The position numbers were made by a program, and so were the translations under genes. A stretch of DNA of 52,774 nucleotides, the filler included, from Dirinaria sp. TL-2023a (Eukaryota): NCBI GenBank assembly GCA_051941275.1. It is 2 parts of 2 records of this genome, joined end to end, with 100 filler letters (N's around TTAATTAATTAA, not from the genome) between each part and the next. Parts side by side here need not be neighbours in the genome. Positions count along the whole stretch, not along the records: positions 1 to 26,390 come from JAVEBF010000163.1; 1 more part is not named here. One strand, 5' to 3'. The first letter of the stretch is position 1, and the number at the start of each line of letters is the position of its first letter. Positions 12,110-29,799 of the stretch are shown in pieces. The notes under the pieces are model-generated. The model was not told where the DNA came from. It did not search any database and saw only the letters and a program-made list of their open reading frames with translations.

Positions 12110-12249
12110 GAGCCCCGGGATCGGATCATCGTGGACGAGTACACGTACGGAGTAAATTTAGATTCAGAGCGATATTAGTGGAGCCCCGAGATCGGATCAT
12201 GGTGGACCAGTACACATACGGAGTAAATGTGGACTCAGAGCGATATTAG
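12110..12249 (+). repeat. 71-bp-period tandem duplication (2 copies)
   Basis: gagccccgggatcggatcatcgtggacgagtacacgtacggagtaaatttagattcagagcgatattag (12110-12178) is repeated from 12181 with a few substitutions. Confidence 0.92.
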
Positions 12250-14536: not shown

Positions 14537-14847
14537 GCTGCCTTGTTGTGCCACTACGAAGCAGATTCCATGGAACATGAAGACGTTCGACTAGTTGGAT
14601 GATTTGCAATGGGAGATTCTAGTCCAAGGCTGCCTTGCCGATGCTGCCTGGTTCAACGACTTCTAAAGGATTGAAGTTCTGACTCACGTTTGCAACCACA
14701 ACTGAATGAATCAATTCCTCCTCTATAAGAGAATCCTCCCCTTCCCTCGTTCGTTTTCTTTCACTTTCTCCTCTTTATAGAGGCCTTACATCCTTTCTAT
14801 CCTGACCCACGAACTGCTGCTACATGTGCTATTGATTCGCAACCACA

Positions 14848-17123
14848 ATGGCTGTGACACATATCGTCGAGATTAACGGCAAGGCAGCCATCACGAACGA
14901 GAGCAATGCCAAGGAAGTTGACCAGAAACCAAGGGCTAAGTCTGGTATGACTTCTGATGTGAAGAGCTTGTACGAAGGGAAGCCGGACGATCGCGGGAAG
15001 ACTACCTGGGTTGATAAGTATCCCGATGACTTGGAGGAAGCTGCCGAGAACGCGGAATCTGCTTGCTATGCCTTGCTTATCCGAAATACAAAATGTTATG
15101 ATGGGCGCAGAAAGCTCCAGATGGACTCAGTCACTGTCCAGAGCCCTTTACTTAAGAAGGCCTTTGCTGAAGCCCTTAGCGATTACCCTGGCGTGACTGT
15201 CTCGTTAGATCGCTTGACCTTCAAAGCGCCCTTTAAGCCCTTCGTTCATCGCTGGGCAAAAATAAAGAAGGCCCTTGAGGATGAGACTGATCCTGAGACC
15301 AAAGCTCACCTTGAACTATTCCACCGTGTCATGGGAGACGAGCTTCAAGATGACCTCAAAGCTAGAGACGACTACATATCAAACAAAGTCATTACCTACG
15401 ATACTTGTTGGATGATCTTTGAACCAGGCACCATCGTTTTTGGATTGGACGACAAGCAGGATTGCGCTTTCAGATTGACAAATGGGAACTACATTAACAC
15501 ACAATGCGGTCCTGCTTTCGCTCTCGACTGTGAAAGAGTCGATTGGGACGGCGAAAGTTTTGGCCTTGAATCCAAGAGACTTCTCATCTACCAATTTTTG
15601 GGAACGAGGCCCATTACGCAGTTGACGGCTTTTCCATTAGACTACCATCAGGACCTAGAAAACGTAAAGAAAGCGCTCGTTGAGAGGGGCAAGGTTTTTG
15701 AGCGCTTTTCTGGCTATCATTATAAACATTACAGAGGTGTTGCTGTTGGCTACGGTGCATGGGGCCCAGTCAAATACGATGTGAGTCTTCTACAGCAAGG
15801 ATATAGAATTGTGAACTCATCGGTACAAGGTCGACAGCCGAATCATCATTGATACCTACGCTTGGAACAGATTCAATCCAAACCGTCAAGTGTTTCTTAA
15901 CAATCTGAACAGGTCGCAATCACCGGCCAATACTGCTGATGACGAAGATTCTGTTCAAGATGAAGACACCGATTACGGTGACGATGACTTGGATGGTGAA
16001 GAGCTGACGACCCTTAGTCAGCCTGGCGAGTTCAATCCCAAAAGTCTAACAAAGGACCAGCTGCTGTTATGTAGCGCTACTCTAAGAGGCTACTCGCTGA
16101 AAAATAAAAAGTGGCGTAAGTTCCAATGGTGCTGTTCGCAAGTAGCTCCAACTAATCAAAGGTAGTCATCTTCGCTGTTGCTGCCGTCGACGACATGAAA
16201 TGGAATGACGGCGCTTTTGAGAGCCTTGTTCTACCAAGCAATCACAAAGAGCTGATCCTTGCTCTTACAGAAAGCCAAGTAGCGGATAAAGAGTCATTTG
16301 ATGATGTCATCCAAGGCAAGGGTACGCCGAAAAAATGATCTCTTCTTACTTCAAAGCTAGAAACTGACATCTCATAAAGGCAAAGGCATGATCATGCTGC
16401 TTAGCGGGCCACCTGGCGTGGGGAAGACCTTGACTGCTGAGTCAGGTAAGCTCCTGCTGCCTTACTCCGCTGCTATCCTTTTCTTAACCCACTATAGTGG
16501 CTGAAAACATGCACGTTCCGCTTTACATGATGAGTGCAGGTGATCTGGGCCTTGAATCCTCTGGAGTGGAGTCCTCGCTCTCCAACGTGCTAGAGATGTG
16601 CACTAAGTGGAATGCCGTTCTGCTCCTTGACGAGGCAGATGTTTTCTTGGAGCAGAGAAGCGCTCATGACCTCGAGCGAAACAAATTAGTATCAAGTGAG
16701 TCTACTATACGGTGCTATAGAACTATTTCCTGATACTTTTCAGTTTTCCTCCGCATGCTCGAGTACTACGAAGGCATCCTCTTCCTCACAACCAACCGCG
16801 TTGACAACATTGATGCGGCATTCCAATCTCGAATCCACCTGTCGATGGAGTATAGCGAGCTCTCGAAATCGTCACGTCGCCACGTCTGGGTCAACTTTCT
16901 GTGTGCGGGAGGGACCAAAGCTCATGGTTTCTCGGACGCGGATCTTGATCGGCTAGTTGGGTACGACATGAATGGTCGGGAGATCAAGAATGTCCTCAAG
17001 ACTGCGAAGCTGTTGGCAGGCAAGAAAAAAGAGAGCTTGGGAGTTTCGCATGTCGAGACTGTTGTGGCCATCGAGAAGAGGCACATCAAGAATGAGGGTG
17101 AAACTCAGGTGAAGAGCACATGA
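14848..17123 (+). CDS. Fungal AAA+ ATPase of unknown function (FDDxIxGKGKG subfamily); exons 14848-15780, 15830-16115, 16166-16321, 16380-16445, 16498-16695, 16744-17123
   Basis: Spliced product has RIIID, LRGYSLKNKKW, WNDGAFESLVLP, FDDVIQGKGKGMIMLLSGPPGVGKTLTAESVAE (Walker A), VLLLDEADVFLE (Walker B), ERNKLVSIFLRMLEYYEGILFLTTNRVDNIDAAFQSRIH and MNGREIKN. Confidence 0.93.
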
Positions 17124-17816
17124 CTCTGCGTGAAGGGGAGGAGGGAAAGACCACTTACGGCCATACTTTACTTCCGAGGAGTGAGTGAGCATCCAGGAGA
17201 GTCCATTTTCTGACTTTGACAATTTGCATGGCATTCATAATTACAACAAAGGTTCATTACTAAAGCTCAGGGACTTTATTTTTCCAATTTCCAAAAGTCT
17301 CTAAGAATATCGTTGCACGGCAATGACTTTCATTCATGTAAAGTTTTATTTTATCGAAATCGTTCTTTACAATACTCCCACTCCAACCTCTGATACAAAC
17401 AACCCCCATAACTCAATATAATTTGTGAAGTCCACATCCAACCCAAAAACCACAGCTGAAAAATTTTGTCCTGTCTAGATTCATCTTAAGAGAGCTTTGC
17501 TTCTTTCGTGCTTGCTTAGCTTACCCCCAAGAACATATCGAGTCTTTATCATTCCACATCTTCAGCTCATCTCATCTACAAATGCGATCTTCTACGGCAC
17601 ATCCAAGTAAATCATCGTCATGTACTATAGATCCGAGTCAGCAGTGCAACAGTGCGCTAAGAAACAGACTTCCAAACGAAGGACACTTTATTCTCTTAAG
17701 CAGCACTCAATTGAGCTCCCTAATCTATATAAGATTTTTTTACTTTACATTCATTTTATCTCATTTTACCATCTACTGCTACATCTCATTATAATCAAGA
17801 TCAATGGTAAGAATGA

Positions 17817-19100
17817 AGAAGAGTAAGAGCTAAAAGTCCAAACCTGCGGAACACCAATGGACCCCACGCAGGTCTGAAGTTCATAGAATTCACAGTGATG
17901 ACTATCCCAAGAATCGGATACACTACAGCATGGTTAGATGAAGAAAAGGTTGACATGGAGTGAGAAAAGTGCTCTGAAGAGGAAAAACTTTGTTTTCTTG
18001 CAATCATGAAGAATAGAGGCCGGCGAGAGGAAAATAGAGAGTTTCGAGGACAGTATCGGCACATCCATCTTTTGAATATTGTTTGGAGATGTGAGGGTGT
18101 AGGTTTTTGAATGATTGAATGGAAGAAAGAATTTCACTTCCCTGCGCTAGAAACAAAGTTTTATCGAGGATTGGATGAAGAAGCGGATGAATGATGGTGC
18201 TCGAAATACTGACCTTCCCAATCTTTTCTTCTTACGCGAGTTTGAAAGATGGTTCCGCTACAGCACATTTATGGGAAGAATTCTACCAACGGGCTCTATG
18301 TACAAGGTTTCTTGCAGCGGACAAGGCTGCTCAATCTTTTGGAAGCTGCTATAGCCCAAGCGTGACGGGATGGAGTGATTACATCTTACGTGGCCGCCGT
18401 TTGAATTATTGAAGGTTTGAGGGGCTTTAGTGATACTGTGACTGATGAACTATTGCGCGGACATCACAATGTCGAGAGAGCACTAATGAAGCTGCTTCTT
18501 TGCTCGAGCGCTGCTGGTGGATCGGACTTACTCTTTGGAAGATGCAAGGGGCTCCAAAACGTATCGTATTAATGGTTATCAGTCCCGTAATCCGTGGATT
18601 CTAAGTCAGTGAGCCTCTATTATTGAGGAGCTTATCAGTCTCAGAAAACTAGTAAAGATGAAGTCTGAATTGACATTTAATATCGTTGAAGCTCGAAATC
18701 GGATGACCACATTTACACTAATAAGATAAAGATTGAAAAAAACCAAATTAGTCGATTCATCAGCTCTCAACTGTACGATGAAGAAGCTGCGAGTGATGGG
18801 GAAGAAGTAGTGTCGTGACTTAAAAGCTTTCATTGCTCAAATCAAGAATGAAACGGAAGAGCGATAAATCACATCACGAAATAATGAGAGCAAGGCGGCA
18901 TGACTGACTACATAGTGCACCTAAATGCAAACAACTTGCTTCAGAGAGACGAGGAAGACCTCCTTGCTCTATTGCTCCGTGCTGAACGGGATGCAACGAA
19001 GCGCCTTCGCCGACATGTAGTTGCACTTGCTGCTGGGTATTTCACCCAGTCCGACCTAAACATCACGCGTCCACAAGAGTTGCAAGCGATTCTCGTCCAG
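17817..19100 (+). pseudogene. Decayed reading frame of unknown family
   Basis: One frame runs 17817-18569 with 7 TGA and no TAA/TAG. The same frame continues, with further stops, into the 18900 ORF (MTDYIVHLNANNLLQRDEEDLLALLLRAERDA..), which has a CAG|GTATGC donor-like site at 19101. Confidence 0.45.
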
Positions 19101-19908
19101 GTATGCTTTGAGCAAACACGCGTCTTTTTTCAATTAACAGAAAAACATTTGCCTGACAAAACGAATCATTGTTGACAATGACGATTGCGAAGACTATGAG
19201 CAAGTGTCGAACGTCAAAGCGAAGTAGAGTACGTTTTCGAAACTCTCGACTCGTAAATCATCATATCTTCAATCTTTTTACACCGAACGAAAAGTCTAGA
19301 AGGACCGAGATTTACCTATTCAAAGACGTTAAAATTAGGAGGCTAAACGCAAAACTCTAGATGTCTCGGTCCAACGATCTCAAGGAATAGACGAAGAGGG
19401 CATCATAGAATATGTCTGCCATCAACCAGAGTCACGAGATTAATGACGGTGCCCAATTGTACGAGAAATGGGTTCAATATCATCAGAGCGAGAATTGCGA
19501 GATTCGCGAAGCCGGCGGGCATTCAATCCTATTCCGCGCCAGTCTATCTCCATCGCGCATGGGAATGGACGTAAGATTCAATGAATTTCGATTCAGATAT
19601 TTAATCAACAACATCTCTTAACTCACTTGTTTTCTTCACCGTATCGAGTCATTGATTACTTCGCTCATCTTAGCTGCTCATCTTAGCATTTATCAAAAGT
19701 GAGTATTGACACATCTCATCATCAAAACAGAAAATGCAAAGGGCTAATGGAGAGACAGAGCTACGTTCTAAACTTGTTTCCGAGTCGCAGAGACTGGCGC
19801 CAGGATCACAATATAATTGTGTCTTTGCTTATCGAGTTATCGTCGCGCAAATGTACAATATTACGATGAAGCAGGTAAAGTGGCTGGCTGAGTCCAGAAG
19901 CTTGCTTC

Positions 19909-19940
19909 TTCCTTCCTTCCTTCCTTCCTTCCTTCCTTCC
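19909..19940. repeat. (TTCC)8 microsatellite
   Basis: Perfect ttcc x8. Confidence 0.95.
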
Positions 19941-22900
19941 TTTGTTTCTTTCCTTTCATTGCTTCTTTTTCCTTCCCCATTCTTCATAATCATCTAGTCC
20001 TCTCTTTTGACAAGCGTTACAGATTATCAAAAGTCTAAATTCAAACTGTATACTAAAGCTAGTCATTCGATGAAGAAATCATTCGAAAAGATTCGAATAA
20101 TCCGAGAAAAAAAAGAGAAGCTGCCAAGAGATGTTGCTATGACGGCAATCCCAATGACAAACTTGACCGCGAGACAAGAAGAATTGATAAATAATCTCGA
20201 GAAGAAGAAGATATCGGAACTAGAAGCGTATAGGCAGCAATCACAAACAATTTTGAAACATACTCAAGTCGACACAGATGAGAACGCGCAGACTATTGAA
20301 AGCAAATTCAACGTGTTCTGACGTATTCGATGGAGCTACGATCTCGTGAAAAAGCTGCATGTCAACACGCAATATGGCTCAAAGTCCTTTAGCAAATTGG
20401 CATATCGGCTTCTACTGACAAAGATACCCACCAAATCGATTTTGAAAAATCCAGAGAAGCCGCCCGTATCTGACGCTGGTACAGCCTCACAAAACATCGT
20501 GATTTGCTTATATGCATCACAACAGAGGGAAAGAGGGCGAACCAAAAGTGAAAAACGACCAGGGATAATGCAATGAATGACCTCCAAACTCACTTAAAAG
20601 ATATTAAAGATCAGACATCCGTGGACACACGAAAACTGGAAAAGAGATCTTGAATTTCTATCAAGATCCGGTGCGCACGATAATTATGTAAAACGCTGTC
20701 AATTGCATATACTTTATAAATTTCAATCCCTTTGAGATTTTGAGCCTGCTGGCTGACAGAAATATCACATTTCAAAAATCCGAGAGCTCTGTATTCTCGC
20801 TACGGCTCGATCTACTATGTAAGCGATATGCTCGAGGAAGAAACTTACGAAGTAAACCAATGACCATTCGTGAAATCAACGTGGCGATGAAATCTCCAAA
20901 CGAAGTTCAATTTTCTAGATGCACTCGTTTAGTGATTACAGGATTCTTTTTTCCCAATCTATCTAAGAGTGGAATAACGTGACATCTGAAAGTACTCTAA
21001 TCTCAGCAGATCAAAACGACATCCTCAGATACCTCAAAAGTTGTCGTGGTTGAGCAGATAGACAGATCAGCAAAAGAACGCAGAGAATAAGATCGTCTCG
21101 AGAGAGTCTTAGGACTTTCGTTCAAAGTTTGACCTAAAAACTAATGTAACTAACACGATGCAGATGTCCAAAAAAGAAGCTGCTATACATGTAGCAATGA
21201 CCGAAGCATTGCTGGAAATGATGGTCGAATCTTTCCCAGTCGATGAGACCTTTTCCTTCAGAGAAGAGAAGCATCTCCAGTTACAAAATTTTTGAGGATT
21301 ACATTCGTCTAAACAGCTGATGATATTTTCGTGTATCGATTTCAGACCGGCGACAGAGAGAAAGACAAATGCTTCGCGCGTTTGATAGCGATACGACATC
21401 AATCATTGGAGTAAAGACCCTTCTCAGTCAGAGACAATGATCGTCGAAGCATTGCACGAAGATATCGAAATCACGCTGAGAATTGACTACATAATACAGA
21501 GAATTTAAAATGCTCATTACAAGCATGTCAACATAATGTAAAAGAGTTCTCCCATCCATTCCATCGAGCATCGAGCGAGAATCAGAACAAGACGGCGACT
21601 TAATGATTTTATGAAGCTCTTGAAAAAAGGTCAGACGTCATACGACAGTGATTTTGATTATATTAGAAAGCAAAGCATTATCAGATTACAAAGGAAAAAT
21701 CATGAATCGATTATCGAGCGCTTTGATGAAAAAAAGAGACTTGGTCTTAAGGTTCCGCGGTCTGAGAGCTCTGCTCAGTGGTGAAAGAGAAATTCTTTCG
21801 CGAGACGAAAGTGGCTCTTAATATTGATTCCCTTGAAAGACTCCGCACCGGGGATGCTTACTCAGATAGCATCTACTTTTCCGTTGCTATAGAGATCATA
21901 TATTCGCACAATAGTCGATTTTCGCTCTTCTGACTCCTGGTTAGCCACCTTTCTATCTATTCCAGTCCTCCATCTTAATCAAGATGTCAAAAGATTCATC
22001 CGCACAGCTCTCAAAAAGAGACTAGAAATGAGACAAGAAAGCTGCTAAGAGATAGGGAATAATTATCTAAGATATCACCTCAGCAATATCTGGAAAGCTT
22101 CGACGTAACTCGTACAAGGACAAATTATGTTTCATGACCTTCAGGAAAAGACAATATTTATTGATAAGATTTCGGTAATCGCAGTGGAATCTTTCGACAA
22201 GAACTATTGATCTTGAGAAACTGAAAGAGATTCAAGAATAATGTTAAAATGTTGAATGACAAGATCGAGAATGAAAAGCTTCGAAAACTGTTGATCAATT
22301 CGTCTGCGAACGAAAATTGCAGATAACATCGATCACTGATCTATGAGATCGATTGGAAGAAGTATCGTATGAATTTGTTCATGATATCGTCGATCGCAAT
22401 CTTAACGTGAAAATGACAGCTGCGTCGACACTTCACGATCTTGGAATCTAAGTATTTTGTCAGTTTCTCGACGTTCTTGAGTCGATTTCAACAATTTCGC
22501 ACTCTTAATATTCGCATCTCCGCACTTCGACGCTATTTAAATAGCACTAAGAGTTTGTCGTATTCGCAAAGAAGCTCATCCAAGCTCGAAAATGACTTGC
22601 AAAGCTCGTCGTCCAGATTGAAGAGAATCTAATCTCCGAGCTAGATAGAATTACTGAAAATTTTTCGAAGGATTTTTTCAATGATCTTCTGTTCCTGCTT
22701 TTTCGAACAGATTCCATGATCAATTGCACTGTTCCATCAGAAAAGCTGACAGCTTTCCGCAACAACATTAGCTGAAGACATGATATATCTCGAAAAGCAT
22801 CTGCTAATGTGTTCAATGACGTCGAGTACCAATTGATCGCTTTTCTGAGTCCGCATGTCAATGGAAACTATATAATTCTCGTTCCTCGTTGGGTCTCAAC

Positions 22901-25900
22901 AGTAATATCTCATATCTTTGTCATTCATTCTTGGAACTCGATCTCTAAGTTACGAGTTTTCTTTCGAGTTCATCTCTCGTCATCGATACGACACTTTATT
23001 AATCTCATTTATGACTTGAACTAAAGTCCTGAGACACCGACAGAATTCTTCCAATGAAGGAATGTTATCAAAAAGTTTCGTGACTCTGGGAAATCCATGT
23101 CAATACTCAGAGGCTCTAGACGAAAAAGAACAACTTCAACTTGCAACGGCGATCCGCTGGGCGTGATCTTGCTCTTTGCTCTTTTTCCATGATCAGTATC
23201 GATTGTTGCAACCCATACTTTCATCGTTCACTCAATAAAAGACTTTCAAACGCTTGAATCTAGTCTCAGTTTTTCCTCCTTGTATCTAGATCACTGTCCA
23301 GGATCTCGTATCTTATGACTTCCGTCACTTTATCAGATCGTAAAAGATGTTGAAATTCTCCGATACTCACGTCCTGACATTCAGTGCGGAAGAATTATTA
23401 ATGACGTCGAATTCGACATCATATCTAATGTCGACGTATTTTCAGAGCGAGATACTTCGTTCTTTGTGTTTCAATTTTCGGCAGCCATGTTCTTTGTGAG
23501 TCGGGCACATATGGATTTACTGGCTGTCTCAGAAAATCAAGAAATTGATGATCTTTTTGATGAACAGTTAAACAAGCTCATGGTTTGTTTGTCTACCAAA
23601 ACATTTACTCAAAAAGACTCTGAATTGAAATTTAGATCTCTCGAATTTTAACTATGCAGCAAACTTTGCAGCACAAATTTTGAAGAGCAGTGCAATGTTT
23701 GAATTAACGATCGCTTTAGATTCAAAGAGCAGAGTTGCAACAAACAACGACCAAGCTCTATCTCTTTCAGTAAGAGATATTAGTCGTTTTAAAACAGAAG
23801 TCGATTTGAGTCATGTCGACAGCATTCGAGACGATCTGATGCACATGTCAAAAACGAGTTTCGTCAAGAGACGTGACTTGACTTCAAGAGAATGATGCAA
23901 GATTTTTTAAAAGACTGACTACAAAAATGGATTTAACGTGGATTTTGAGTCTTCAATTGACAAACTTCGAATATCAGAGATATTAAAAAAGGCACTGCAA
24001 CAAGTAGATCGAAGCTGAGCTTAAGCAGTTGAGGGAGGGCGAAGAGAAAGGAAAGCTTAAAGAGGAAGTTGCAGTAGCAAAGAGTCCAATGCGCGTCAGA
24101 AGAGAAGAACAGCAGAAAAGTCTCGATGTCCTGAAGAAAATTTTGAATATATTTTGATTTCAAACACACTGCGAATAATAATTATCACTTATCACGATTT
24201 TTCATTTCTTGACAAATTATTCAGACAGCGCGTTTTAAAGACGCTGAGAAAGCTCAGCAATGAGCTTTTCATTGCGGTCAAACCAAATGTTAAAAACCAA
24301 TGCTTGTTAATGGAGAGCAATAAAAAATCTCATTATAGCGAACCGAATGTGTTGTTTTATGACGAATCCTGAACTGATTCTTCCGAATTCGGTGATAGAA
24401 AATGCAAGCACAATTATCTAACTCGGCGTACAGCCTCATGAAAATCATGAAGGTACTAGCAATTCTAAAAACTAGAGAGAATAATGAAGAGCTGAATTGA
24501 AAAGTGTAAAAAGAGCTGAGGTTCAGGATTTTGCTCAGCAGAATGACATAGAAACAAGACAATGACGAATGTTATCGACGAAACAGTCTGTGGAAAAATC
24601 TTAGAGCTTTTGCTTCTGATAGTAAGTTTCTTGAGCGTGAGATACATGAAGACGAACCTTGCTGAACTGTCTGCACGCAATGCTCGATCCATTATCTATT
24701 CAGTCAGTTGACTTCGAATTAGCAGTCTTACAAGAAAACACCAGCTTGAAAATCAAGTCTCCGCTTGAGAATGTTTGGAAATCAAACTTGTGATTTTACT
24801 TACGCTAGAGATAAAGACTTCGCTCATCAGCGATCGATGCAGATTAGTTTGAACACTTTATCCGCATGAAATATATTTCTATCGTCGGGATACTGCTTTA
24901 GAGAAAGCTGTGACAAAACTAATACTTTTAAACCCGTACAAAATATTTTGTGATGACATTGACCTCGCTGACGCAGAACTAAACACAAGATAAAATTCGA
25001 CTATTCGAGTTCGAAAGATTCTGTTAAACTAAAGAGCAACAGCATTTACGTCTTTCTATAAAGAATTAGTACATGATTCTTCTTTGTCAGCTAGACGTCG
25101 CTCTCAACAGAAATTGATGAAACAATCTAAACAAAATTCGAATATTCTAGTGAATCAGAGAACATTTCGTACTATAGTTCACCACGATATCTCACTACAT
25201 AAACCACCTTTAGATATGTATCCCGTCATTCTCTTTCAAACTGCAATGAATCAGCACTGAGTCTCTGCTTCATAATATATATCCCTGACGATTTCGATTT
25301 ATATCGCAAAAGACAATTATCATTTACGAGCACATCTATTATCATTGCGACTTCCACGAGACAAATTCTTGTATTTTTCAAAATTTCAAGTCCTCATAGA
25401 AGCAATATCTTGAACAAGATATGTTGAGGGGAAATTGTTACCAGGGATGCTTGCTTCTATCACAGATATCTTACTTGCTACTATTGTTATGTCAAGAATA
25501 ACGCTAATTAATCATCATGCACTTAGTATTGAGCTGTTTCTGAGTAGCTCTAAACTTTTACATCTAAGATAGCTATATTCTTTTCTACCCTCAGTCCTTG
25601 CATCATGATATCATCATTGTTTTTTAAAACATACTTTTGAAAACGCGTGACTCTCGAACGATTCATGAAAGATGTCATCGATATCGTCTTGTAGGAAACT
25701 GCTTCAGAAAAAAAATCTGCTCTGATGAACAAAGAGAAGATTCAGACGAAGTCAGCAACTGAAATTAAAATCATCAAAATTTGTTTTCCAGAAGCGAGCT
25801 GTAAGACGTCGAACATCAAAATCGATACGTTGGATAAGATCACTAAGATTTAAGATATTACAATCCCGCGCTCTTTTCTGAGCTTTATCGATTTTTATTT

Positions 25901-26390
25901 CCTCTCTTCTTTTCATTTATATCTCACTGCATCATTAGTGTTTTCGTTATTGTGCGCAGCGATTCACACGCGAAATCTACAAGAGAATCAAGAGACTTGA
26001 AAACTACATCGCTACTGCCACAGCTGGGGTTCTATAATACAAGTTCGAAGTTTGAAATAAGTTTCAATTTTTGACATAACGCCTCTGAATGTTTGAAGAC
26101 ACTCTTATGTTTTCTGTTACGCGTCGACCATTGAACTGATAATTTTTACACCTTTGGTCGATTATTCTTGTAATTTTGAATCCGCTTTGTCGTGTTTGCC
26201 TTATTATGAGATTGTAATTGATAGTCTCATAGCTTTGTAGCTTAAAAGACAACAATCTTGATCTGAATTTTATCATTGTTCGACAGCATTTTCGTTGAAA
26301 ATACTTGACATAATGAATCGATACAATCTCGACGCGTTGATTTTGAAGATCAGAAAGAAGAAGATCTCCTGATGCTGGTATTTTCAAAAT

Positions 26391-26490
26391 NNNNNNNNNN
26401 NNNNNNNNNNNNNNNNNNNNNNNNNNNNNNNNNNTTAATTAATTAANNNNNNNNNNNNNNNNNNNNNNNNNNNNNNNNNNNNNNNNNNNN
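26391..26490. other. Artificial assembly spacer: N44-TTAATTAATTAA-N44
   Basis: Exactly 100 nt. The central palindromic 12-mer puts stop codons in all six frames, a standard contig-joining linker. Confidence 0.97.
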
Positions 26491-27166
26491 CCTTCCCCCT
26501 CCCTAACAACCTCTTAACATTCAACGATGCACCTATCCCACCTTTCTTTCCCCTTTGCACGATAGATCAGAATTATCATCCTTTTCCCTCATTCAAAATA
26601 ATGATTTATTTTTTGTATTTTTAAAGGGAGAGGGGGAAATGTTTCATACACTGTGAGAGTCTAAAGTTTAGAGCTCAAAGAGTAGATAGTAAGAGGAGGA
26701 TATGGCATGGATATTTACAAGTAGGGAGGGATGGGAGAACAAGGCGTGGGTGGTAAAGTCCTCACTACACTACGCTATATATTTTTTGCGGGTCGATTTT
26801 TTTAGTGCAATCGCGGCTGATCAAGGTGGCAGTAGTGCTTGCGGTCAATACGAGGGATGCTCGCCGTATGGTATCTGATGATACTTAAGGAGATGAAGGG
26901 AAAGGGGCTGTGCTATGCCTACATCGAGGTAAGCGAGATAAGCGAGGTAGGTAAGGTACGAGTCCTCGTACAATTCGGTGAAAAACAGGCCTCAAAACTT
27001 GACGGTAATGGCACTTCATTACCACTGGGGCTTAGGTATGTCTACCGTAATGTATGTAGGTCTACTGAGCGCAGTAGCTTCCCCCTTGGGAGTGCGACAA
27101 TCTCTGTCAATTTGTGGGATAATTGCCTTCATATCTCAAAGACAGTCCTGGTCTCCCAGATGTCTC

Positions 27167-27198
27167 AAAAAAAAAAAAAAAAAAAGAAAAAAAAGAAA
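27167..27198 (+). repeat. Poly(A)-rich tract
   Basis: A19-g-A8-g-aaa. Similar tracts at 29366-29396 and ~29633-29653. Confidence 0.9.
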
Positions 27199-28300
27199 CG
27201 GACGATAGATTCGCAAGACCTGCTCTCACACCTGAACGAAATCTAAGTTCCTATCTTATCTCTGTCGGGTTGTCAATGAAGAAAATGATATTCTCAAATC
27301 TCGAAGGCAGTAGTAGTATGTTAGTCCCAGAGGTCGAGAGACAGCACCGAAACTCACGCTAACCCAGATCCGGGTTTCCGAAGGATCTCTGCTGGATTTT
27401 GGGACAAAAAACCAAAATGATGGCCAAGCGAAAATTTTTGAAGCAGAAAACCCAGCTTGCTAATCATGTAAGATACATCAACACAATTCCTATAAGACAA
27501 AGCAAACTCCAAGATTCGTAATTAATTTATGTATGCATCTAAGATCATGAAAAGCTTGAATTTTTATGGAGCGTTTCTGGGTAAAAGACTGCTTCTAAGT
27601 TAATCCTTTGATATCCTTTTGGTAACATCTTTATCCCACTCACTGCTATCTTTGAAGTAATTCATCTTCCTTTCTTCCAGCTTGACTCAAGCATCTAAGG
27701 TAACAATAACATATACATATTCTTCCTTTTCAGACCATACGTTATTTCCGGAACTACTGTATCATTAATGGCTAAACCATGACGATGATGTGTATGATGA
27801 CTGAGCAGGGCTCGTGTAGCCAATCGCCCAATGTGCTCTATTCTACTTATTGAAGTAGAGTTTGAGCTATCCAAGTTATAATTTTTTTTGGAAAGGAAAC
27901 AAGGAATTATATTCCCGATTTTCGTTCAAACATCAGTCCCTTCCTCGAGTGGAAGAGAGACTTCTTCCCATTGCCTCTTAAAAAAAAAGTCAACCCGTAT
28001 CAACTTGCTCAGTAACTCAAAATAGGTCGCTAGAGACTCGTATCTTCTGTCGAATTGTAACGAAGGAAAGATAATACCTTTCGGCCCAAATAAACTGCAA
28101 TTCCTACGCTGAAAACCGATTGTCAGTCCTGAATGGCAAGGGGCCGCAAGATGAGACGAGAGACGGGACGAAACAGGACTCGAATATCAAACAAGAATGT
28201 TTAACGGATTTCCTGTCGGATTTGTTATAATGAGGAAAATACCTTACTTCAATACTTTCAAATCTCGAAGGCAGTCCCGCGGTACCGTGTTAAAACCAAC

Positions 28301-29353
28301 CTAAGGTAAGGCCAGACCCTACCACTAACCAACCCAATTCAGATTTCCACCACATCTTTGTCAGTTTCCTGTGAAGGAAACCATCACACTTTATTGCGTT
28401 TCAGATCCAAATCGCAGTCCTGGAAGAACTCACCTGACCTAAGGACTACAGGATCCTCATCCTAACCCAATTTCGGATTTTCCCACATCTTTGTTAGTCG
28501 GTTGTGAAGGAAATTTTCATACTTTATTGCCTTTCAGATCCCAACCGCAGTCCTCGGAGATCCACTTACAGAACCCCGACCCCCAACACTAACCAAATCC
28601 AGGTTCCTACCACATCTTTGTCAGTTGATTGTGAAGAAAAACATCATACTTTATTGCGTTTCAGATCCCAATCACAGTCCTAGGAGTCAAAAACCCGGAA
28701 GATAAGGGCTACAGAATCCTCACCCTAACCCAACCTAGGTTCCTACCACATCTTTGTCAGTCTAGAGTGAAGAAAACTTTCACACTTTATTGCGTTTCAG
28801 ATCCCAATCGCAGTCCTTACCTACCGGAACCTAAGGGCTTACAGAACCCGATCCCCAGCACTAACCCAATCTAGGTTCCTACCACATCTTTGTCAGCTCG
28901 TTGTGAAGAAAACCATCATACCTTACCTTATATGATTGCATTTCAGATCCTAATCGCAGTCCCAGAGTCAAAAACCAGAAGAACCAACCTAAGGACTACA
29001 GAACCCTTATCCTAACCCAATCTAGGTTCCTACACATCTTTGTCGGTTCAGTGTGAAGAAAACCATCATACTCTATTGCGTTTCAGATCCCAATCGCAGT
29101 CCCCCGGAAAACCAACCTGACCTAAGGACTACAAGACGCTCACCCTAACCCAATCCAGGTTCCTACCACATCTTTGTCGGCTCGTTGTGAAGAAAACCTT
29201 CATACTTTATTGCATTTCAGATCTCAATCGCAGTCCCCTGAGAACCGACTACCGGAACCTACAGACCCTAACACTAACCCAATCCAGGTTCCCACCGTAT
29301 CTCTGTTGGCTTGTAATCAAGGAAATAATACTTTCAGATCGAGATTGCAGTCC
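28301..29353. repeat. Tandem array of 8 imperfect ~117-146 bp units (non-coding minisatellite)
   Basis: Core ctaacccaatc(c/t)aggttcctaccacatctttgtcag..tgtgaagaaaaccatcatactttattgcgtttcagatcccaatcgcagtcc. Unit ends at about 28420, 28553, 28680, 28816, 28962, 29102, 29236 and 29353. Confidence 0.95.
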
Positions 29354-29799
29354 TTAGCGTGTCCCAAAAAACAAAAAAAAAAAACAAACAAAAAAAGGGT
29401 GTTTCTGAGGTATACAGTACGATAGATGAGCCACCATCATCATCGTCAAGGAAACCCCCATGCTTGATGCCGCAGCTTCCTTTCCGGACTTCAGGGAGCC
29501 CTGATTGATTGATTGATGATCCCTTTGAATTCCTTTTCTGTGATTGAGGGTATTTGCGAATTATGTCTTTGCTGCTACTACGGATGGATGGATATTTTTC
29601 TTATCATCATCAGGTTTCAGCTAAAGAAATTTAAAAAAAAAAAACAAAAAAAAGAAGGATGCGAACGGCCGGCTTTGTGCCCGGCACGTGGATTCTATTT
29701 TTCTATGCTTGGATTTCTTTTTGATTTGTTATACACACGACCCGCCCGATTAGGGACATGGAATTGAATATTATATCGATGATGCAATGACGAATTTTA

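Follow-up and report, generated by a model that had tools for sequence, protein, structure and literature searches.

A CC- and GG-depleted block in a Dirinaria contig points to a possible RIP-like process aimed at cytosine before cytosine

The DNA analysed here (the window) is a 52,774-nt stretch of Dirinaria sp. TL-2023a (GenBank assembly GCA_051941275.1), composed of two contig pieces joined end to end, and our subject is a block at 17240-26390, at the end of the first contig (JAVEBF010000163.1), that is strongly depleted in the dinucleotides CC and GG. The block has lost CC and GG, gained TC and GA and kept CpG and CpA; the Gly, Pro and Trp codons of a gene relic within it have decayed, and a comparable block in a related lichen fungus has lost CC and GG entirely. 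We give slightly better than an even chance to the explanation that the block was degraded by a C>T process resembling repeat-induced point mutation (RIP) but directed at CpC, with a context preference roughly the inverse of that in Neurospora. Such a process would make C>T (G>A) transitions mainly at C before C, turning CpC into TpC and, on the other strand, GpG into GpA; CpT would be a weaker target, CpA and CpG would be largely spared, and the block would represent part of a Lecanoromycete genome that is decayed and free of genes. The evidence is indirect but mutually consistent.

The depletion is large and regional. Between 17240 and 26390 the GC content is 0.389, compared with 0.496 and 0.484 in the two flanks; CC occurs 228 times where 362 are expected (odds ratio 0.63) and GG 197 times where 331 are expected (0.60), against odds ratios of 0.92-0.99 for both dinucleotides in the flanks. 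TC and GA rise to 1.39 and 1.42 (flanks 1.15-1.22) and CpG to 1.12 (flanks 0.84-0.88), CA and TG are unchanged at 1.06 each, and TA stands at 0.60. In 1,000 shuffles that kept composition within 500-nt bins, CC and GG together numbered 698±22 and never fewer than 632; the block has 425. The longest run free of both dinucleotides measures 219 nt, compared with a mean of 103 and a maximum of 203 nt in the shuffles and a maximum of 82 nt in either flank. An earlier reading of this DNA from its sequence alone (the sequence-only reading) had described erasure of CC and GG with CpG and CpA/TpG still common, and these figures bear it out; a CC/GG odds ratio near 1 after composition correction, which it had named as a finding that would count against it, did not emerge from the shuffles. 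The two stretches it had singled out as free of CC and GG do contain neither (5 CC and 7 GG expected in one, 7 and 5 in the other), with exact limits of 23752-23929 and 24964-25182. Its placement of the block at 17240-26390 was right about the loss but too generous at the start: in 500-nt windows from 20001 to 26001 the CC+GG odds ratio is 0.28-0.86 (0.71 or less in 11 of 13), and from 17001 to 19501 it is 0.64-1.03. The strong signal thus spans about 20000-26390, and 17240-19999 is only mildly affected. The features concerned are as follows.

14836-17240, plus strand: left border, an intact AAA-ATPase gene with a DUF7025 domain (Pfam DUF7025); CC+GG odds ratio 0.77-1.03, which is normal.
17240-19999, no strand: mild zone without an identified gene; CC+GG odds ratio 0.64-0.89.
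20000-26390, no strand: core of the putatively hypermutated block; CC/GG frequency 0.32 of that in the flanks, GC 0.377, no open reading frame (ORF) above 124 aa.
23752-23929, no strand: CC/GG-free run of 178 nt.
24964-25182, no strand: 219 nt free of CC/GG, the longest such run in the window.
26391-26490, no strand: artificial contig joint, two 44-nt N runs around TTAATTAATTAA.
26491-29500, no strand: internal control on the other contig, AT-rich and non-coding, with CC and GG kept; CC+GG odds ratio 1.10-1.25.

The TTAATTAATTAA element with its N runs at 26391-26490 is presumably the usual six-frame-stop linker for stringing contigs. Because this joint is artificial, the block is a contig end, and the sequence from 26491 onward is not its true neighbour. 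To its left the block is contiguous, with no N, with a normal host gene. The affected stretch, 6-9 kb long and gene-free, closes a contig of a lichen-forming fungus. The depletion cannot be put down to low GC alone, since the AT-rich sequence at 26501-29501 (GC 0.37-0.46) has odds ratios of 1.10-1.25. The position of the block, at the end of a contig in a stitched draft assembly, could suggest an assembly or sequencing artefact, but the depletion is regional and strand-symmetric (CC 0.63, GG 0.60), its products are context-specific, and the pattern recurs in an independent assembly of another species, described below; we find an artefact hardly credible.

Composition indicates which cytosine of CC is lost. 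All trinucleotides containing CC fall relative to the flanks (GCC to 0.17, CCC to 0.23, ACC, CCG and CCT to 0.33, CCA to 0.37 and TCC to 0.50). The products expected from conversion of the 5' cytosine are raised (TCA 1.44, TCT 1.48, TCG 1.14, ATC 1.35 and TTC 1.44), those expected from conversion of the 3' cytosine are flat (CTA 0.98, CTT 1.09, CTG 0.83 and CTC 0.86), and the CT/AG odds ratio of 1.11 equals that of the flanks. We then simulated context-dependent C>T decay from the genic flanks of the window, stopping at the GC content of the block and scoring each model by squared differences summed and scaled by observed frequency, a measure that is a distance rather than a formal test. Conversion of CpC to TpC with a small background came closest (0.019), followed by CpY (0.026), either C of CC (0.038), uniform decay (0.046), the 3' C (0.066), YpC (0.077), CpG (0.115) and, last, CpA-type RIP (0.178), the rates for which approximated the Neurospora order. 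The best model gives CC 0.19, TC 1.58, CT 1.19, CG 1.26, TA 0.58 and GC 1.05, where the observed values are 0.51, 1.45, 1.11, 1.20, 0.58 and 1.08; it thereby also reproduces the higher CpG and the lower TpA.

These results bear directly on ordinary CpA-type RIP and on CpG methylation decay, either of them blurred by drift. There are reports of RIP from lichen fungi, and for Cladonia rangiformis the accessible part of PMC12542154 describes RID and DIM-2 homologues. In the block, however, TpA/ApT is 0.62, the substrate index (CpA+TpG)/(ApC+GpT) is 1.34 and the composite index is -0.72. With all the standard indices negative the block scores as non-RIP, and the usual RIP tests would miss a block of this kind. 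CpA/TpG is unchanged and CpG raised, the two processes give the two worst simulation fits (0.178 and 0.115), CpA-type RIP predicts an enrichment of CC to 1.14, and the fitted rates at CpA and CpG, given below, are about 0.1 of that at CpC. Neither process fits, as the sequence-only reading had argued, and we hold this explanation to be extremely improbable. Taken singly, decay of 5-methylcytosine at CpG was rejected on the CpG odds ratio (1.12 against 0.84-0.88 in the flanks) and the model distance of 0.115, and a Neurospora-type CpA preference on indices of 0.62 and 1.34, a CpA rate 0.10 of the CpC rate and the worst simulation fit.

Fourteen related loci were fetched from metagenome contigs by means of the gene to the left of the block. 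L001, L002 and L004 keep the gene order of the window, L003-L006 are further orthologues, and the orthologues of the DUF7025 AAA-ATPase gene in L001-L006 can be aligned to about 17114; none of the 14 loci has sequence alignable to the block. We fitted models with four free neighbour rates, taking either the window flanks or the DNA of L001 and L006 as a stand-in for the ancestor, with the following distances.

Core, window-flank ancestor: 3'-neighbour model 0.0100 (rates A 0.10, C 1.00, G 0.10, T 0.24); 5'-neighbour model 0.0575; uniform 0.106.
Core, L001+L006 ancestor: 3'-neighbour model 0.0131 (A 0.10, C 1.00, G 0.08, T 0.22); 5'-neighbour model 0.0603; uniform 0.0964.
Control 26491-29500, window-flank ancestor: 3'-neighbour model 0.0457 (A 0.65, C 0.03, G 0.72, T 1.00); 5'-neighbour model 0.0357; uniform 0.0572.

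By these fits, it is the 3' neighbour that sets which C is converted in the core. Multiplying in the 5' neighbour lowers the distance only to 0.0085, with a nearly flat 5' term, and each third of the core gives the same ranking at its head (CpC 1, CpT 0.22-0.28, CpA 0.03-0.19, CpG 0.04-0.18). In the mild zone at 17240-19999 the 3'-neighbour (CpN) fit is 0.0146 against 0.0246 for the 5'-neighbour (NpC) fit, and CpC still has the highest rate. Product/substrate indices of the RIPCAL type, as defined in the portion of PMC2621366 that we drew on, fall in the core relative to the flanks to 0.28 for CpC>TpC, 0.58 for CpT>TpT, 0.73 for CpA>TpA and 0.87 for CpG>TpG, and the CpC>TpC index in the mild zone is 0.58 of that in the flanks. 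The control at 26491-29500 keeps its CpC>TpC index (ratio 1.06) and drops the other three (0.63-0.68), so only the CpC loss is specific to the block. Dependence on the 3' neighbour is the hallmark of RIP-type conversion, and it is on this ground that we read the process as a RIP-like genome defence.

A second line of evidence comes from a pseudogene within the core, whose two pieces are the following.

20247-20435, plus strand: relic (pseudogene core) of an uncharacterised Lecanoromycete protein family; phmmer E 1.3e-11, family hidden Markov model (HMM) E 7.4e-14; in-frame TGA at 20319.
20528-20611, plus strand: probable C-terminal piece of the relic in another frame; weak match, domain E 0.02-0.08 at Z=1; TGA at 20549 aligned to a family Trp.

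An exhaustive phmmer search, confined to frame 0 of 19998-23597, returned five matches, and a profile search built from these yielded 33 proteins (P0121-P0153) of 82-629 aa, with conserved GTGxNxQTF and WRVRWDxDPxKGPHVN motifs and a C-terminal Cys. Named sources include Cladonia borealis, Teloschistes, Bacidia gigantensis, Pseudocyphellaria aurata, Alectoria sarmentosa and Trizodia, and the family seems largely confined to lichen-forming Lecanoromycetes; no Pfam domain was found in the five first matches or in the precomputed annotation of the 33 members. The match implies that a lichen-fungus gene family has left one or more decayed copies in the block. In six frames of 17000-26390 and in the 14 related loci, the family HMM found nothing beyond this one relic and its weak continuation, and a family scan of a collection of genome contigs found no relative. 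A perfect (CTTC)n microsatellite of 8.8 copies lies just upstream of the relic, at 19908-19942.

We aligned the relic to the family HMM and tallied codons in the columns on which at least 60% of homologues agree, using Fisher tests. Changes affect 10 of 12 Gly, Pro and Trp columns and 17 of 40 others (p=0.020). Nine of the 10 Gly/Pro/Trp changes can be reached by C>T or G>A alone, against 4 of the 17 others (p=0.0013), and across all conserved columns transition-only changes account for 9/12 and 4/40 (p=3e-5). The reachable codon changes are GGC>GAC, GGY>GAT, GGR>AAA, TGG>TGA, CCC>CTC, GGG>AAG, CCG>CTG, CCC>TCC and CCG>TTG. The conserved codons for Gln (CAG, CAA), His (CAT) and Arg (CGT, CGA) have survived, and this speaks directly against targeting of CpA or CpG at the relic. 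As judged from this one relic and from composition, in which C and G fall while TC/GA and AA/TT rise, the mutations appear to be C>T/G>A transitions.

The relic also bears on the possibility that the block was never mutated and is an element or foreign insert natively poor in CC and GG. All of the model fits assume an ancestor and no ancestor sequence is at hand, which leaves room for a native composition. Yet the family to which the relic belongs is found in Lecanoromycetes (Cladonia, Teloschistes, Bacidia, Alectoria and Pseudocyphellaria), the relic has lost conserved Gly, Pro and Trp codons by transitions and carries an in-frame TGA at a family Trp, and its 63 aa include one each of Gly, Pro and Trp, against family averages of 12.7%, 7.1% and 1.5%. 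The block is moreover contiguous, without N, with a normal host gene. A native origin therefore strikes us as very improbable.

The third line of evidence is L003, a locus from a related lichen fungus. It opens with a block rich in AT (positions 1 to about 3100, GC 0.16) that is absent from the other loci and takes the place of the proteasome-ATPase side of the synteny shared by L001, L002 and L004. Positions 1-2400 of L003 contain 405 C on both strands and 0 CC, and each of nine overlapping 500-nt windows has 0 CC+GG where 5-12 are expected. CpG stands at 1.6, CA/TG at about 1.0 and TA at 0.91, ACA outnumbers every other surviving context, and TpA/ApT and the substrate index are 1.09 and 0.99. 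A CpA-type simulation run to the GC content of L003 predicts CC 2.07 and CA 0.15, whereas the observed values are 0.00 and 0.97. Since CC and GG are absent and CpA is kept, the erasure pattern is not peculiar to this window. Pfam found nothing in the AT-rich block of L003, and in the orthologous alignments of L003 with L001 transitions are balanced, with no hypermutation.

Several observations weigh against the CpC-directed, RIP-like explanation, and the first concern L003 itself. In its block GpC is 3.6-fold enriched, and TC, TCA and ACG are depleted; a 5'-neighbour model fits at 0.097 (C 1, T 0.52, A 0.26, G 0.15) and a 3'-neighbour model at 0.174. The L003 block is not simply a late stage of the same model, and no simple neighbour model fits it well; the misfit could stem from saturation, from a second process or from a difference between species. 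In the window, a cruder fit with 16 free contexts assigns high rates to CCN and NCC contexts alike, so composition alone cannot fully separate the two cytosines of CC. Direction and context rest on an assumed ancestor (the genic flanks or the DNA of relatives) and on one short relic, because no alignment of repeat copies exists. The relic sample comprises 12 Gly/Pro/Trp columns, and its contrast shrinks under stricter conservation, to 7/9 against 8/22 at 80% (p=0.054) and 4/6 against 5/18 at 90% (p=0.15). Differences in 17 of the 40 other conserved columns, mostly transversions, make the family consensus a poor, distant proxy for the ancestor. About a third of the altered relic positions fall on a 3' C or on a G before another G (CCG>CTG, CCG>TTG, GGG>AAG and GGR>AAA), and the relic by itself allows only the statement that either C of CC is hit, with the 5' one preferred. 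Self-similarity searches of the block and searches for repeats in the window (blastn at word size 7; transition-blind 22-mers) found none, and ORF, six-frame and TGA=W scans of the block found no transposon or other Pfam domain.

Some of these points would suit ultraviolet (UV)-type dipyrimidine damage or APOBEC3G-like deamination of the 3' C of CC: both eliminate CC, some of the relic codon changes are at the 3' C, and L003 shows TC depletion and a 5'-neighbour effect. In the window, however, TC/GA is enriched (1.39-1.45) and CT/AG shows no rise, the distances of the 3'-C and YpC models are 0.066 and 0.077 against 0.019 for CpC>TpC, TCT survives at 0.87 in L003, and genome-wide damage would not halt at the border of the block. 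We consider this alternative very unlikely. An APOBEC3G-like CC>CT signature in the strict sense was rejected with CT/AG at 1.11 as in the flanks, CTN at 0.83-1.09 and a distance of 0.066, a minority of the relic changes fitting it; a UV dipyrimidine signature was rejected with TC/GA at 1.39-1.45 and a YpC distance of 0.077.

The searches for other copies and for genes were otherwise negative. The block has no blastn match in the 14 related loci, and a purine/pyrimidine-recoded comparison with them gave only short matches of at most 104 nt, as expected for a two-letter alphabet, in which E-values are invalid. Translated searches (tblastn) of related-locus ORFs against the block matched nothing beyond 17171; 57 ORFs, six frames with stops read as X and TGA=W readings of the block gave nothing above noise against Pfam; a word-based protein search with 19998-20597 had no match; and Rfam at its gathering threshold placed no RNA family in the window. 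The sequence-only reading had proposed a repeat-directed C-to-T mutator preferring a CC context. The preference is supported by the CpC>TpC fit, the relic codons and L003, and we consider a C>T process directed at CC likely; the repeat-directed part is not supported, as no second copy was found in the window or in the 14 related loci, and no transposon domain in the block.

The main competing account is a context-biased cytosine decay in silent chromatin, acting on any DNA there rather than being triggered by repeats, whether through non-CpG methylation and deamination or through a heterochromatin deaminase. It agrees with the lack of repetition in the self-similarity searches of the window, with the only identifiable content being a relic of an ordinary host gene family rather than a transposon, and with the grading of CC/GG loss from mild (17240-19999) to strong. 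Two considerations speak against it, neither decisively: the 3'-neighbour dependence is a RIP hallmark, and related lichen fungi have sharply bounded transposon compartments of 10-20% GC that are attributed to RIP in the accessible part of PMC12542154. We regard such chromatin decay as unlikely, while treating it as a serious competitor.

On the CpC-directed, RIP-like reading, the process may be this lineage's version of RIP, that is, repeat-triggered, premeiotic and carried out by a RID/DIM-2-type enzyme. The trigger, timing and enzyme are suggested by analogy, together with reports of RIP-attributed compartments and of RID and DIM-2 homologues in lichen fungi; no RID or DIM-2 gene is present in the window. 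Few rounds of mutation would have left the block at its intermediate GC of 0.38. The more general proposition, that Lecanoromycete lichen fungi run a RIP-type defence set by the 3' neighbour with an inverted preference (CpC >> CpT > CpA ≈ CpG), we advance only tentatively, at somewhat less than an even chance.

Elsewhere the window encodes housekeeping proteins, its ORFs including a proteasome ATPase, a cyclin, RIO2, RPN1, an NADPH-cytochrome P450 reductase-like protein and MOR2/PAG1. For the RPN1 frame, identity is 93% to some proteins and 85-89% to those of Lepraria, Puttea, Mycoblastus, Teloschistes, Umbilicaria and other lichen-forming Lecanoromycetes. A tandem array at 28294-29325, upstream of the RPN1 gene and close to where the second contig starts, repeats a unit of about 133-136 nt 7-9 times (72-82% matches); its units are C-rich, with CCCTAACCC-like motifs reminiscent of telomere repeats, and CC and GG are not lost from it. 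Short tandem duplications occur in the left part of the window, where GC is normal, at 12110-12249 (69-71 nt, 90%) and 1705-1791 (42-45 nt, 90%). Patches of 150 nt, for example within 17390-17690, have a strong excess of C over G or of G over C (as in 41 C and 18 G, with 14 CC and 0 GG); the idea that they are one-strand mutation tracts was rejected, as the skew is one of purine and pyrimidine and not of G>A.

A lineage with a CpC-preferring RIP would be under-called at intermediate stages, as surveys rely almost exclusively on CpA/TpA indices or on GC content. If the explanation is correct, the TpA/ApT-based indices on which every survey draws would fail to register early or partial RIP in Lecanoromycete fungi, Gly, Pro and Trp codons would be the first to be removed, and a re-specified RID/DIM-2-type enzyme or a different deaminase would be implied. 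Such a lineage would offer a natural specificity variant from which to learn how RIP enzymes select their cytosine. AT-rich compartments hamper the binning and assembly of lichen fungi, and an index of CC/GG loss could be a cheap marker of silenced fungal DNA; the predicted decay pattern (Gly to Asp or Lys, Pro to Ser or Leu, Trp to TGA) could likewise guide searches for pseudogenes and transposon relics.

Among known systems, APOBEC3G converts CC to CT on the deaminated strand, targeting the 3' C on a single strand. CC and GG are erased in both cases, but the product in the block is TC/GA and not CT/AG, and both strands are equally affected. RIP in Neurospora crassa (RID/DIM-2; CpA>TpA) is closer: it too makes C>T/G>A transitions at a C chosen by its 3' neighbour, destroys coding capacity and enriches AT within a bounded region beside intact genes. 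Its context order is CpA>CpT>CpG>CpC; the block differs in its CpC context, with CpA and CpG at about one tenth, and TpA is not produced (TpA/ApT 0.62). Variants of RIP-like context exist, at CpG in some Aspergillus and Penicillium and at TpCpG in Microbotryum and other Pucciniomycotina. They resemble our case as lineage-specific context shifts of a C>T process, theirs being repeat-directed, but they are centred on CpG, which the block spares (odds ratio 1.12-1.20).

CpA dominance is documented for N. crassa, P. anserina and S. nodorum in the portion of PMC2621366 drawn on here, where RIPCAL treats CpC>TpC as one of four formal possibilities and CpA dominance is what is reported, and a kingdom-wide survey describes a CpA preference as common to fungal RIP-like defences (PMC12543289, in the part available). 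The literature search, which extended to neither supplements nor subscription papers so that an earlier mention is possible, found no CpC preference reported for any fungus and no RIP context for any Lecanoromycete. 'Ripped' compartments of lichen fungi have been described in Cladonia rangiformis (PMC12542154) and, under the name LRARs, in Xanthoria (bioRxiv 10.1101/2025.11.25.690456); in the accessible parts of both, RIP is defined by GC content or RIPper indices, with no dinucleotide context. The block differs from such compartments in failing the standard RIP indices. It resembles them in belonging to the same fungal class, with a genic GC of about 48%, and the two GC classes that the accessible parts of these accounts describe, transposable-element-derived DNA of 10-20% GC and an intermediate class of 20-40%, accommodate L003 (16%) and the block (38%), respectively.

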